Shown here in pieces: positions 2,973 to 9,294 of a stretch of 24,000 nt of DNA (the first letter of the stretch is position 1; each line of letters opens with the position of its first letter). Source of the stretch: Ignavibacteriota bacterium (GTDB taxonomy: Bacteria > Bacteroidota > Ignavibacteria > UBA10030); NCBI GenBank assembly GCA_003155495.1, contig PMDB01000064.1:1-24000 (forward strand), in the 5' to 3' direction. The notes below the pieces were generated by a model that did not search any database, was not told the DNA's origin, and saw only the letters and a list, made by a program, of their open reading frames with translations. Position numbers and translations under genes: made by a program.

Positions 2973-4010
2973 CTAAAAATATCGTTTTTTCATTCTCAAC
3001 GCCACATTGACAAGACCGATAAGCACGGGTACTTCTACCAAGGGACCAATAACAGCCGCGAAAGCCACACCAGAATTGATACCAAAGACTGCAACCGACA
3101 CAGCTATAGCAAGCTCAAAGTTATTGCTTGCCGCTGTGAAGGAAAGAGTTGCGGTCTTCGAATAGTCAGCTCCGACTTTCCTGCCCACATAAAACGAAAT
3201 AAAAAACATTATCACAAAGTACAGAAGCAAGGGAATCGCAATCCTTATAACATCAAGAGGGATCTTTATAATATATTCGCCTTTGAGAGAGAACATGACA
3301 ACGATGGTGAAGAGAAGCGCGATTAATGTCATCGGACTTATTTTTGGTGTGAATTTCTTTTCATACCATTCTTTGTTTTTCAGTTTCAACAGCACAAAAC
3401 GGGTTATCATACCGGCAAAGAAAGGAATTCCAAGATAGATGAAAACGCTTTCGGCTATTTGTCTGATTGTGATTTCGACTTTAAAAGATTGCAGCCCAAG
3501 CCAATTTGGAAGAACGGTTAAGAAAACATAAGCATAGACCGAAAAAAAGAGAACTTGAAAAATAGAGTTGAATGCAACTAAACCTGCGGCATATTCAGAA
3601 TCGCCTTTTGCGAGTTCATTCCAAACAATAACCATTGCAATGCAGCGAGCAAGACCAATCATTATCAAGCCGGCCATATACTCCGGATGATCCGGAAGAA
3701 ACAAAACTGCTAACACAAACATTAAGATGGGGCCGATAATCCAGTTTTGAACAAGCGACAACGCCAGTACTTTGGTGTTTTTAAAAATATCGCCGAGTTC
3801 TTCATACTTTACTTTTGCAAGGGGCGGATACATCATTAAGATCAAACCGATTGCAATTGGAATGTTTGTGGTTCCGCTTTGAAATGAATTCCAGAAGTGT
3901 ACTATTCCTGGGAAGAAATATCCGGAAAGAATGCCTACAAACATTGCCAGAAAAATCCAGAGTGTTAAGAACCTATCGACGAATGATAATTGCTTTGTCA
4001 GAGAAGTCAT
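2973..4010 (-). CDS. acr3: ACR3-family arsenite efflux permease
   Basis: Strong match to ACR3 hallmarks: [75 protein letters not shown]. About 10 TM helices. The ORF is open to 4073, but the ATG at 4010 ([10 protein letters not shown]...) matches the family N-terminus and avoids overlap with the upstream gene. Confidence 0.92.
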
Positions 4011-4029
4011 AGTGTATTCTTTTCTTAAT

Positions 4030-4608
4030 TTAGCTCCGTTGTAATTCGTTTCCAACGGAGAACGCATCGCCAAGTTTGTCGCCGATAGTATAATACGCCA
4101 TACTGCCGAATGAACCCCACAGCATTGGCCGTACTTTCTCGATATCTGGAAGTTGATTTGGATTTAAAACCTCGCTATCAGCGACCATTCCGACAATTTT
4201 TCCAATGAACATCGTATGCAGGCCAAGATCGACCTGCCTGATCAGCTTGCATTCAAGGGAATACGGAAATTCTTTTACAATTGGGGCATTGACCAGTTTG
4301 CTCTTTTCCGGAGTGAGGCGGGTCTCCTTGAATTTGTCATACTTTCTTCCCGACACTATGCCGACAAAGTCGGCCTCCTTGAGATACTTTTCAGAGGGAA
4401 TATTCACTGTGAATGCCTCGGTCTGTTTGATGTTGTGATAACTAAGCGTCGCTTCCCTAAGAGACACACTGATACATGGCGGTTTGCTTGATGCGATTCC
4501 TCCCCAGGCGGCATTCATGATATTAGGCATGCCATCGGAGCCATATGTTCCAATGATGAGCACCGGAGAGGGGAGCAATATCGTTTGTGCCGGAAGGGAG
4601 ACTTTCAT
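4030..4608 (-). CDS. Flavin reductase-like (FMN-binding split-barrel) domain protein
   Basis: 192 aa. The pattern [39 protein letters not shown]...[18 protein letters not shown] is typical of the Flavin_Reduct domain family. It ends 19 nt before the acr3 start. Confidence 0.75.
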
Positions 4609-4829
4609 AATTAATTCCTCGTTAATAGATGTTGACTGTTTCTATTTCGATGAATATTAAAATCAATTCTTTTAACACAATAACAATCTCTGAAGGCAAT
4701 TTCTTTTGGAATTTCTCTTTTGACATTTCTGAATCACAATGCATTATATTAACTCAAAAAAAATAATAATTGCTTAATAAGAGAAGTCATCTTTTCTTCT
4801 TTGTTCTTCTTTCTTTATGCTTCATTGTG

Positions 4830-5135
4830 TTAATTACAGCACGTTCCTTTGTCAGGGCCGCCACAAGTAGGAGCTGTTCCATTGAAAGCACCCTGAATAA
4901 TTCCCGCAGCACATCCGCATCCGTCTCCAACATCCAGTACAATTGCTCCCTGCGGGCAGTTTCTTTTACACGCGCCACATTCCATGCAAAAATCACGGCC
5001 AATAATACGCACTTTTTTGTCCTTCAGTTCAAAGACTTCGTGCGGACACACTTTCACACACATACCGCAGTTATTGCATTTCTCTTGAATCAGATCGAGT
5101 GTTAGAACTTCCGAAAAATATCTGAGTCTTTCCAT
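4830..5135 (-). CDS. hgcB: HgcB-type 2x[4Fe-4S] ferredoxin (mercury-methylation electron donor partner of HgcA)
   Basis: Two CX2CX2CX3CP motifs (CNNCGMCVKVCP, CMECGACKRNCP) and a Cys-rich C-terminal tail ending GTCCN, the vicinal Cys pair characteristic of HgcB. It lies immediately downstream of hgcA (13-nt spacer). I prefer the ATG at 5135 (MERLRYF...). The ORF track start at 5171 would overlap the hgcA 3' end by 23 nt. Confidence 0.85.
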   Translation of the reverse strand: MERLRYFSEVLTLDLIQEKCNNCGMCVKVCPHEVFELKDKKVRIIGRDFCMECGACKRNCPQGAIVLDVGDGCGCAAGIIQGAFNGTAPTCGGPDKGTCCN

Positions 5136-5148
5136 ATGGCTACTTTCT

Positions 5149-6297
5149 TTAGATTGCGATTTCAAGAACAAGCAGCATTACCGCTATTGCACCGAATATG
5201 ACCTGAACAGGTATTGCAATCTTCATTTCTTTTTTAACACCAGCAAGCGATGTATATGTAGATGCACCCGTAAAATTCATTGCGAGGAACGAAGAAAAAC
5301 TCGATATGAAGAATATTTCAGCGAAGTTTACCATGAGACCTCCATCCAGGGAATGGTTCAGGAATAATAGCATCGAGACAATTGCTCCTAGGATGAGTCC
5401 CTTAAATGAAAAATTTCGTGTAGGAATATAGGGGAGAAGTAATGGAGTAAAAACTATTCCGGCAATATATCCTGCTGCAACAATTTTTGCAATAGGGACG
5501 ATATTCCTGAGTGCTTGTTGCATCGAGTACCCATTCGCATTTATCCCTGAGAGAACAGAAATGACTATTAACATAGTTAGGAGATAGCGCATATTATAAA
5601 TAATGTCGTTGGGGACAAGTTTCAGCCTATCGTACCAATCGAACTTGACGCGTCGCATTTCTTTTGATGCTTTATAATTTGCCTGCACAAACGCCGGGAT
5701 ATCCGTAGCCCGTACCGGTCCGTAGATCACCGTGAATCCGGATACTTCTTTGACCAGATGCGCTGCAACTCCTGTCGCACCGAGCTGCGGAAGAATCAGT
5801 CTTCTGTGAATCACTACTTTGTCAAGCGATGTCAACTGAATTCTTCGTACCAATTCCTTTGTCCCGAACGTTCCTTTGCCTGCCGCACACCAGACATTAA
5901 CCCCTTTGGTGTCCAACACAAGAAGCCAAGCATTCACTCCATTCAAATTCTTTCTCACCAGATCGAATGAAAACTTATAATTGGCAGTTACAAAGATATC
6001 TGAACGATCATTCGGTATTCCGACAGCATATAAGCCCGGATCAACTCGATACTGATCTCTCCTGATACCCCAGCGTACTTTGAAAGCTCCAAGGTAATCC
6101 TTCCAGTCAAGTCTGGCTGAGATTTGTGGAATTTCACCTGCCCTAGTTTCAATACCGCCTATAATATAAGGTTTTGAGGTCGGTACTGGATCGTTACTGG
6201 GGGTTTTGCAGCCGTAATCATTCGCCGGAACTTTCAACTGGAGAGAAACCAGTTCGTTGGAATTCCCGCAACCACATTTCTGATCTGAACATCCCAT
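5149..6297 (-). CDS. hgcA: HgcA-type corrinoid protein (mercury methylation), with an N-terminal corrinoid-binding domain and a C-terminal multi-TM domain
   Basis: The diagnostic cap-helix motif G-V-N-V-W-C-A-A-G-K-G-T-F-G-T covers residues 132-146 (NVWCAAGK at nt 5875-5898; Cys137 at nt 5887-5889). This fits the published N(V/I)WCA(A/G)GK HgcA signature. The C-terminal ~150 aa form about 5 hydrophobic helices, which soluble CFeSP/AcsC-type corrinoid proteins lack. An HgcB-like ferredoxin follows directly. Confidence 0.88.
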   Translation of the reverse strand: MGCSDQKCGCGNSNELVSLQLKVPANDYGCKTPSNDPVPTSKPYIIGGIETRAGEIPQISARLDWKDYLGAFKVRWGIRRDQYRVDPGLYAVGIPNDRSDIFVTANYKFSFDLVRKNLNGVNAWLLVLDTKGVNVWCAAGKGTFGTKELVRRIQLTSLDKVVIHRRLILPQLGATGVAAHLVKEVSGFTVIYGPVRATDIPAFVQANYKASKEMRRVKFDWYDRLKLVPNDIIYNMRYLLTMLIVISVLSGINANGYSMQQALRNIVPIAKIVAAGYIAGIVFTPLLLPYIPTRNFSFKGLILGAIVSMLLFLNHSLDGGLMVNFAEIFFISSFSSFLAMNFTGASTYTSLAGVKKEMKIAIPVQVIFGAIAVMLLVLEIAI

Positions 6298-8887: not shown

Positions 8888-8908
8888 ATGTCATTCTCCT
8901 ATAAATAA

Positions 8909-8928
8909 CTATCGCAATATTACGATAG
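8909..8928. promoter_or_regulatory. Candidate ArsR operator 2 (imperfect palindrome between arsR and arsM)
   Basis: CTATCGCAATATTACGATAG has 9 of 10 palindromic pairs. Its 18-nt core is 17/18 identical to the core of the perfect palindrome at 9273-9294. It sits 21 nt upstream of the arsM ATG and 17 nt downstream of the arsR stop. Confidence 0.6.
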
Positions 8929-8945
8929 ATGAGTACAAAAAATTT

Positions 8946-9266
8946 TCAACAGCACGATTTCGCATCATTCAGAAACTGAGCAAGAATCTGTTTTGCTTCC
9001 TGCCATACTTTTTTATTGATGCAGTAGCATACCTTTGGTCCTTCAATCTCACCTTTGATAAGACCGATACGTTTCAATTCAGCAAGATGTTGTGATACAG
9101 TTGCCTGAGACAAAGGAAGTTCTTCCACGATATCGCCGCAAACACAAGTATCCTGTTTGGCAAGGAATTCTAGAATCGCGATACGTGCCGGATGTGCAAA
9201 TGCTTTCCCGAGATCCGCAAGGCGATTCTGATTATTGCTAAAAGATTCTTTCTTGGATGTTCCCAT
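8946..9266 (-). CDS. arsR: ArsR/SmtB-family metalloregulatory repressor
   Basis: 106 aa with a winged HTH ([19 protein letters not shown]). It has the metal(loid)-sensing CVCGDIV motif in helix alpha3 (the ELCVCDL-type site) and a C-terminal vicinal Cys pair (KSCC). It is the first gene of the ars block. Confidence 0.9.
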
Positions 9267-9272
9267 AATTAA

Positions 9273-9294
9273 TATATCGTAATATTACGATATA
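9273..9294. promoter_or_regulatory. Candidate ArsR operator 1 (perfect 22-bp palindrome)
   Basis: TATATCGTAATATTACGATATA is its own reverse complement across all 22 nt. It lies 7 nt upstream of the arsR ATG and overlaps a plausible -10 element. Confidence 0.65.

Follow-up and report, generated by a model that had tools for sequence, protein, structure and literature searches.

Results

hgcAB lies within an arsenic resistance operon

Here, we present an analysis of a 24,000-nt stretch of DNA from an Ignavibacteriota bacterium (GenBank assembly GCA_003155495.1, contig PMDB01000064.1, positions 1 to 24,000; hereafter, the window), in which the genes for the mercury methylation proteins HgcA and HgcB lie among genes for arsenic resistance (ars). 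Nine open reading frames (ORFs) run head to tail on the minus strand between positions 2973 and 9294, in the order arsR-arsM-arsN2-nitroreductase (NR)-arsC-hgcA-hgcB-flavin reductase-acr3 (Table 1). hgcAB thus sits between arsC and acr3, downstream of an arsR gene that is flanked by two conserved palindromes. A first-pass annotation, made by a model from the sequence alone, had proposed these nine genes, their order and the embedding of hgcAB among them; the ORFs were found where it placed them, and the families were confirmed using the curated cut-offs of NCBIfam together with Pfam. The operon is flanked by ftsZ, the end of the dcw cell-division cluster, on one side and by thrC on the other.

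From arsM to hgcB, the junctions span a 4-nt overlap (the ATGA shared by arsM and arsN2) to a 19-nt gap (NR-arsC), with 10 nt between arsN2 and NR. The hgcA ATG lies 3 nt past the arsC stop codon and the hgcB ATG 13 nt past the hgcA stop codon; arsR and arsM are 58 nt apart, and the flavin reductase gene and acr3 19 nt. The ATGA, 3-nt and 13-nt junctions were given correctly in the first-pass annotation, but its description of the junctions as very tight overlooked the sole loose one: the flavin reductase gene is set off from hgcB by 221 nt of AT-rich sequence.

Table 1. Genes and other features of the ars-hgc region (window coordinates)
Feature	Position	Strand	Description	Basis
Hairpin after ftsZ	9383..9424	-	GC-rich, TCCGACCTTCC...GGAAGGTCGGA; probable terminator	ftsZ-arsR spacer fold z = -4.39
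Operator 1 (putative)	9276..9291	.	Perfect palindrome of 16 bp, ATCGTAATATTACGAT; end 9 nt upstream of the arsR ATG	
arsR	8946-9266	-	ArsR/SmtB repressor, 106 aa	PF01022 E 1.5e-12; NF033788 71.7 bits (cut-off 55)
Operator 2 (putative)	8911..8926	.	Copy of the ATCGTAATATTACGAT palindrome (1 mismatch), between arsR and arsM (58-nt spacer)	
arsM	8078-8887	-	S-adenosylmethionine-dependent arsenite methyltransferase, 269 aa	NF008823 346.5 bits (cut-off 263)
arsN2	7644-8081	-	GNAT N-acetyltransferase, 145 aa	NF040501 129.2 bits (cut-off 125)
NR, TM1586-type	6755-7633	-	Nitroreductase, 292 aa; 286 aa from an alternative ATG at 7615	PF14512 E 2.2e-34
arsC	6301-6735	-	Low-molecular-weight protein tyrosine phosphatase (LMW-PTP)/thioredoxin-type arsenate reductase, 144 aa	PF01451 E 1.6e-24; TIGR02691 134.9 bits (below cut-off 174.3)
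hgcA	5149-6297	-	Corrinoid protein, 382 aa	NF040863 421.5 bits (cut-off 275)
hgcB	4830-5135	-	2x[4Fe-4S] ferredoxin, 101 aa	NF040864 105.6 bits (cut-off 99)
Vestigial acr3 5' end	4762..4802	-	ATGACTTCTCTtAttAAGCAATTAT...	Direct repeat of 3982-4022 (41 nt, 80% identity)
Inserted segment	4025..4757	-	~730 bp; AT-rich leader with conserved TATAAT, plus flavin reductase gene	
Flavin reductase-like	4030-4608	-	192 aa	PF01613 E 7.2e-31
acr3	2973-4010	-	Permease for arsenite efflux, 345 aa (start ATG at 4010)	TIGR00832 464.7 bits (cut-off 282.8)

HgcA and HgcB have the hallmarks of their families

In addition to its score against the curated model, HgcA stays ahead of the paralogue models, reaching 188.1 bits with that of the HgcAB-like fusions (below its cut-off of 285) and 68.7 bits with the CdhD/ACDS gamma model (ACDS, acetyl-CoA decarbonylase/synthase). 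Cys137 lies within NVWCAAGKGTF, and this cap-helix motif is invariant in an alignment with 18 relatives. It conforms to the family pattern N(V/I)WC(A/S)(A/G)GK, whose cysteine is the ligand of cobalt. The predicted corrinoid-binding domain resembles that of the corrinoid iron-sulfur protein (CFeSP), with PF03599 over residues 83-203 and PDB entry 4djd_C over residues 83-208 (E 1.4e-11). The C-terminal third (residues 232-382) is hydrophobic, with segments at 232-254, 265-291, 295-314 and 357-382, as expected for a membrane domain. A search of the PDB with HgcA matched only CFeSP large subunits and no solved HgcA structure. HgcB, which is encoded immediately after HgcA and also passes its curated model, has two CX2CX2CX3CP motifs (C20/23/26/30-P and C50/53/56/60-P) and a terminal cysteine pair (C99-C100). 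Based on these features, we assign the two proteins to HgcA and HgcB, in agreement with the first-pass annotation, which had named the HgcA motif, the membrane domain, both HgcB clusters and the terminal pair, and had proposed a comparison with curated HgcA/HgcB sets as a check. The host is an uncultured metagenome-assembled genome (MAG), and among the hgcAB literature compared we found no experimentally tested mercury methylator from this clade.

Residues 1-55 of HgcA form a cysteine-rich N-terminal extension (C3, C8, C10, C30) that is kept in close relatives. Tails of this kind also occur in HgcA of Desulfuromonas, Aminicenantes and Planctomycetota, whatever the ars linkage. The tail (MGCSDQKCGCGNS), which resembles the ArsM N terminus, was considered as a marker of ars linkage and rejected, as at least two N-terminal cysteines are present at 7/39 linked and 11/41 unlinked loci. 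In a JGI copy of the contig (L082), hgcB is not called; at 4961-5176 of that copy, corresponding to 4787-5002 of the window, a 71-aa ORF is called in another frame instead. Surveys based on annotation could therefore count this genome as having hgcA only.

The arsenic proteins and ArsR

ArsM passes its curated model and has cysteines at positions 30, 31, 35 and 37 (a cluster), 65, 153 and 203, which presumably include the counterparts of the catalytic cysteines of CmArsM. Acr3, too, scores well above its equivalog cut-off, and its Cys123 lies within LARCIAM, which contains the R-C-I-A-M motif; we therefore take it to be an arsenite permease. ArsC has the LMW-PTP fold (LMWPc E 1.6e-24), a CX5R loop (C9-TGNS-C14-R), and Cys81 and Cys88 seven residues apart. 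Its best model is that of the thioredoxin-coupled pI258 type (TIGR02691), with 83.8 bits for the glutaredoxin type; the cysteines fit the pI258 type, while the score does not reach the curated cut-off, and ArsC is thus probably thioredoxin coupled.

ArsR has a predicted winged-helix HTH_5 domain and three pairs of cysteines, C41-V-C43, C80-Y-C82 and a C-terminal C105-C106, and has no third cysteine at +3 of the CVC motif. ArsR proteins of four related loci (L001 to L004) carry the same cysteines. These four are also the only loci, among those examined and besides the window, in which NR is directly upstream of arsC.

Two putative operators and the extent of the transcription unit

A perfect 16-bp palindrome precedes arsR and overlaps a promoter-like sequence (TTGTTT-17-TAATAT) recognized by inspection; a second copy with one mismatch lies in the arsR-arsM spacer. 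The window has these 2 copies against 0.13 expected by chance, and no third copy was found elsewhere in it, including the hgcB-flavin reductase gap, with up to three mismatches allowed. Both copies are kept in L001 to L004, 365 bp apart. In L002 and L003, where arsM-arsN2 is gone, the second copy precedes NR instead of arsM. Based on the position and conservation of the palindromes, we suggest that they are probably ArsR operators at two promoters, and that operator 2 is probably both a second ArsR site and the promoter region of the downstream genes.

On the upstream side, the hairpin after ftsZ has compensatory changes in its stem in an alignment with L001, L003 and L004 and is probably a terminator between the dcw cluster and the ars-hgc operon. 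The structured spacer and the compensatory substitutions argue that the ars-hgc unit is insulated from the dcw cluster. Between arsM and hgcB, a terminator scan and folding revealed no convincing terminator-like structure, and thus nothing of the kind that would isolate hgcAB from the ars genes. The sequences that follow hgcB and acr3 fold no better than shuffled sequence does (z = -0.13 and -0.25, respectively), and neither showed an intrinsic terminator. The hgcB-flavin reductase spacer holds a TATAAT that the window shares with L002. A spacer without a terminator fold, but with a conserved TATAAT, makes read-through into acr3 likely although not certain. The first-pass annotation had proposed a single ArsR-controlled operon. 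The common strand, the short junctions and the lack of a terminator from arsM to hgcB fit that proposal; the second operator with its probable promoter between arsR and arsM, and the 221-nt gap, mean that it has to be qualified.

The operon is maintained at one chromosomal site and has been remodeled

The contig PMBK01000005.1 (GCA_003153795.1) is 100% identical to the window; the sole difference is a 132-nt discrepancy at the ftsA-ftsZ junction, which corresponds to an 'nn' scaffold gap in PMBK01000005.1. At least 22 contigs in NCBI, JGI and ENA encode an identical HgcA protein. To judge by its accession series alone, GCA_003153795.1 presumably belongs to the MAGs of Woodcroft et al. 2018 from the fen of Stordalen Mire. 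The nearest species-level genomes carry the labels Ignavibacteriae, Ignavibacteriota or Bacteroidota. In L001, L003 and L004, the operon occupies the same chromosomal site, with identities of 98-99% for FtsZ, 99% for FtsA and 95-97% for ThrC.

The order arsR-arsM-arsN2-NR-arsC-hgcA-hgcB-acr3 is present in L001 and L004. Of arsM, L002 and L003 retain only the initial 12 to 19 codons, behind operator 2; arsM-arsN2 has otherwise been deleted there, and NR-arsC-hgcAB-acr3 has been kept. In L001, L003 and L004, acr3 begins 35 nt after hgcB. In the window, a vestige of the acr3 5' end directly follows hgcB and marks the former hgcB-acr3 junction; blastn alignments to L001 and L003 stop at window position 4758 and resume at 4023-4024. 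Together, the vestige and the alignment break argue that the ~730-bp segment with the flavin reductase gene is a later insertion, which is common to the window and L002 only. The flavin reductases of these two loci are 93% identical, a value that among the other operon proteins (65-93%) only HgcB equals. In L004, a flavin reductase gene lies past acr3 on the opposite strand. The high identity to L002 and the different location in L004 suggest that the segment is mobile within this gene pool. A 40-aa ORF in the inserted leader upstream of the flavin reductase gene (4622-4744, minus strand; MHCDSEMSKEKFQKK...) is annotated in identical contigs and has no Pfam match. It is probably not a conserved gene because homology to the L004 flavin reductase locus starts only 12 nt before that gene.

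All genes of the operon are under purifying selection, with ratios of nonsynonymous to synonymous substitution rates (dN/dS) of 0.04-0.19, and of 0.14-0.19 for hgcA. As a separate observation, compared with L001, L003 and L004, dS is two- to fourfold higher in the central operon genes (2973-9266) than in the flanks (9509-12786), with values of 0.57-1.4 for NR, arsC, hgcA and acr3 (0.38 for NR against L003) and 0.25-0.39 for ftsQ, ftsA and ftsZ. The raised dS suggests allele exchange by recombination in an otherwise syntenic region.

hgcAB is linked to ars genes across Bacteroidota and Ignavibacteriota

Scanning one genome per species matched more than 600 hgcA loci, of which we examined the closest 80, so that the sample is biased toward relatives. 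Neighbors were counted if on the same strand and within 5 kb (for arsR, upstream); because several loci are incomplete, the counts are minima. Among 46 loci from Bacteroidota and Ignavibacteriota, arsR is present in 34, arsC in 28 and acr3 in 20; at least one of arsC, acr3 and arsM is near hgcA in 31, and arsC and acr3 are both present in 17. In other phyla, only 8/34 loci have arsC, acr3 or arsM near hgcA. By our rough estimate, for genomes of several Mb with one to three ars copies, only about 1% of randomly chosen 10-kb stretches would include such a gene, and the linkage is thus well above chance. This survey, which the first-pass annotation had called for, contradicts its background statement that hgcAB neighborhoods are generally not conserved, at least for Bacteroidota and Ignavibacteriota. 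Its proposal of a tight coupling to arsC holds up: the distance from the arsC stop codon to the hgcA ATG is -4 to +3 nt in 10/21 loci with an adjacent arsC, and such junctions recur in relatives in which HgcA is only ~50% identical.

Ten Bacteroidales clusters (L007-L010, L013, L020, L024, L025, L043, L061) share the core order arsR...arsC-hgcA-hgcB-acr3 and strand with the window, as well as an arsC-hgcA overlap or gap of 1-3 nt, and their hgcB-acr3 gap is 25-63 nt except in L007, L009 and L025. They differ from the window in that HgcA is ~50-57% identical to that of the window and ArsR mostly lacks the CxC motif; moreover, they have ArsF, ArsG, ArsP, DGC-domain and rhodanese genes, whereas the window has arsN2, nitroreductase and flavin reductase genes. 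The ArsF, ArsG and ArsP families beside hgcAB indicate that hgcAB is embedded there in extended clusters for resistance to inorganic arsenic and organoarsenicals.

Two further arrangements were seen in Bacteroidales. In L042 (8697-9658), L043 (9020-10013), L061 (1897-2896) and L050 (8984-9984), a gene pair for a 233-aa DsbD-like/ArsG-like membrane protein and an 86-99-aa protein without annotation lies directly upstream of hgcA, at the position of arsC in the window. In L036, hgcAB (1173-2500) and a separate arsR-arsC-...-acr3 cluster (9287-11865) are ~7 kb apart on the same strand; this locus may represent the un-embedded state and be useful for reconstructing the origin of the fusion.

Discussion

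The association of hgcAB with ars genes is already known. McDaniel 2020 (mSystems, PMC7438021, Fig. 6) described acr3 and arsC as having 'immediately flanked' hgcAB, with arsM and arsR nearby. In the part of that article available to us, the MAG neighborhoods resemble the window in these arsC/acr3 flanks and the close arsM and ArsR-type regulator genes; the pattern is qualitative, and operators, junction statistics, arsM-arsN2 remnants and the flavin reductase insertion are not mentioned there. The article also describes mining of the Stordalen Mire MAG collection, which we take to be the set from which the window comes, transcription of hgcA from Ignavibacteria in samples from the deep fen of that site, and the monophyly of HgcAB from Bacteroidetes and Ignavibacteria. 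Gionfriddo 2022/2023 (10.1101/2022.10.17.512643) reported MAGs of Ignavibacteriae and Bacteroidetes in which arsC, arsB and arsM adjoin hgcAB, and named Paludibacter jiangxiensis NM7, a cultured member of the Bacteroidota in which an ArsR gene neighbors hgcAB. Peterson 2025 (PMC11984097) found the same neighborhoods and tied arsR-preceded hgcA genes with acr3 and arsC neighbors to lower hgcA transcription. Therefore, the claim of the first-pass annotation that the link here goes beyond a neighboring regulator is not new, and its central inference corresponds to a published and partly tested hypothesis. In these accounts, as far as they were available to us, we did not find the palindromes, the arsM-arsN2 deletion, the flavin reductase insertion or an ArsR four-cysteine pattern spaced like that of ArsR2 in Pseudodesulfovibrio mercurii ND132.

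ND132 is the system in which the arsenic hypothesis has been tested. There, hgcAB is cotranscribed with an upstream gene of the ArsR family (arsR2-hgcA-hgcB); ArsR2 controls hgcAB, which is arsenic inducible (Goni-Urriza 2020; Gionfriddo 2022/2023). Deleting hgcAB made the strain more sensitive to As(V), whereas its sensitivity to As(III) did not increase. When given As(III) or As(V), ND132, which has hgcAB but no arsM, did not produce mono- or dimethylarsenicals (10.1101/2022.10.17.512643). By residue numbering only, unaligned, Cys47/49/86/88 of ArsR2 and Cys41/43/80/82 of the window ArsR have the same 39-residue spacing between the two CxC motifs; the window ArsR differs in its additional C-terminal CC. 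ND132 also differs from the window in that hgcAB has no further ars neighbors there and arsM is absent altogether, whereas the window has a full ars operon. With classical arsR-arsC-acr3 (and arsM) operons, the window shares a repressor gene with a putative autoregulatory palindrome, a thioredoxin-type ArsC, Acr3, ArsM and ArsN2. Unlike these operons, it has genes for a corrinoid protein and a ferredoxin between arsC and acr3, and where the more familiar helpers would be ArsH or ArsEFG, it encodes a TM1586-type nitroreductase and a flavin reductase.

Altogether, we consider it likely that the locus is a chromosomal ars operon under ArsR control, from an Ignavibacteriota population of a fen, and that hgcAB has long belonged to it as a selected and coexpressed member. 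This reading is supported by L001, L003 and L004, in which arsR-(arsM-arsN2)-NR-arsC-hgcAB-acr3 is maintained at the same place in the chromosome. According to this model, in the absence of arsenic, ArsR dimers would occupy the two palindromes, which overlap the promoter regions before arsR and arsM. ArsC would convert As(V) to As(III), which would bind to the ArsR cysteines and cause derepression. A single transcript would then cover arsM-arsN2-nitroreductase-arsC-hgcA-hgcB, with translation of hgcA coupled to that of arsC, and transcription would run on into, or restart before, flavin reductase-acr3. ArsC, Acr3 and ArsM would carry out the classical reduction, export and methylation of arsenic, while ArsN2, the nitroreductase and the flavin reductase could be accessory helpers for organoarsenicals or redox chemistry. 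Because HgcA and HgcB would be made in the presence of arsenic, the capacity for mercury methylation should be arsenic inducible.

Several points weigh against this model. The assignments of operators and promoters were made from sequence, and operator 2 also scores as a weak terminator-like hairpin. The 221-nt gap may contain its own promoter, in which case acr3 would be off the hgcAB transcript in this lineage. Most hgcA-linked ArsR proteins of Bacteroidales lack the CxC motif, and the four cysteines and the CC pair of the window ArsR could indicate that the inducer is another soft metal or methylarsenite. Finally, in ND132, methylmercury production is not predicted by gene and transcript abundance (10.1101/2022.10.17.512643).

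Conceivably, as the first-pass annotation suggested in its stronger reading, HgcAB could itself be an arsenic enzyme that transfers methyl groups from a corrinoid to As(III) or thioarsenicals, being redundant with or complementing ArsM; we regard this as unlikely. Its embedding in, and translational coupling within, conserved ars operons would fit such an enzyme, as would the retention of hgcAB in L002 and L003 without arsM-arsN2, which is consistent with a functional overlap, and the presence of hgcAB among organoarsenical genes of the ArsP, ArsF and ArsG families in Bacteroidales. Methylcobalamin can chemically methylate arsenite; however, the methyl transfer proposed for HgcA has an electrophilic metal target, whereas methylation of As(III) requires a methyl cation donor. 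Moreover, most hgcAB loci of other phyla have no ars neighbors (arsC, acr3 or arsM in only 8/34), and ND132 neither yielded mono- or dimethylarsenicals from hgcAB without arsM nor became more sensitive to As(III) upon deletion of hgcAB (10.1101/2022.10.17.512643). The regulator could alternatively be a general soft-metal sensor of a mixed metal(loid) unit, with hgcAB serving in Hg(II) handling and arsenic being one of several inducers. The C41xC43 and C80xC82 motifs argue in this direction, given that a four-cysteine site has been likened to CadC-type sites for Zn, Cd or Pb (10.1101/2022.10.17.512643) and that the numbering of ND132 ArsR2 (Cys47/49/86/88) has an equal spacing. All other genes of the unit, however, are arsenic specific, and we hold a sensor of this breadth to be very unlikely. 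In a comparison by eye, Cys41 and Cys43 also presumably correspond to Cys32 and Cys34, the As(III) ligands of the E. coli R773 ArsR. The introduction of the ND132 study, moreover, takes hgcAB as not known to be regulated by mercury (10.1101/2022.10.17.512643).

Least probable, in our judgment, is that there is no functional link at all, and that hgcAB was captured once by an accessory-gene-gathering ars operon in an ancestor of Bacteroidota and Ignavibacteriota and has since been inherited with its neighbors. According to McDaniel 2020, the HgcAB proteins of these groups are monophyletic (PMC7438021), and the many linked species may thus reflect one event; the deletion of arsM-arsN2 and the insertion and relocation of the flavin reductase gene also show that the operon is plastic. 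But the arsC-hgcA-hgcB-acr3 core and its few-nucleotide junctions survive this plasticity down to ~50% HgcA identity, hgcA is under purifying selection, and the unrelated methylator ND132 shows arsenic-dependent regulation and an As(V) phenotype (10.1101/2022.10.17.512643).

Thus, we favor hgcAB as a selected member of an arsenic-responsive operon. Direct action of HgcAB on arsenic is unproven and appears less likely than coregulation with an arsenate-linked role, for which there are two concordant hints, the coupling specifically to arsC and the ND132 phenotype specific to As(V). Going further, we tentatively speculate, and hold it to be doubtful, that in Bacteroidota and Ignavibacteriota arsenic and not mercury keeps hgcAB selected, with HgcAB functioning in arsenate/arsenite handling coupled to ArsC, possibly able to replace ArsM in part, and methylating mercury as a side reaction. 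This idea matches the phenotype of ND132, in which loss of hgcAB sensitizes cells to As(V) alone, and a partial replacement of ArsM is suggested because lineages have deleted arsM-arsN2 and kept hgcAB.

The field is already aware of the link between arsenic and hgcAB and has begun to test it; accordingly, we see this locus as a good example of a known puzzle and not as a discovery. To our knowledge, HgcAB is the only known route to environmental methylmercury. If arsenic governs hgcAB in the abundant Bacteroidota and Ignavibacteriota of peatlands and sediments, the geochemistry of arsenic would influence how much methylmercury is formed, and risk models would go astray if they relied on hgcA gene counts alone. 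The locus offers a defined test object: the putative operators are known to the base, the operon is compact, arsM-minus variants exist in nature and the coupling of hgcA to arsC is conserved.

Other features of the window

An Rfam scan of the whole window at gathering thresholds matched no RNA element. A 97-aa ORF on the plus strand (2584-2877) is convergent with acr3 and is conserved with 87-94% identity in L001, L003 and L004; in public annotation, it has weak matches to the Pfam families Bflower and Bflower_2.

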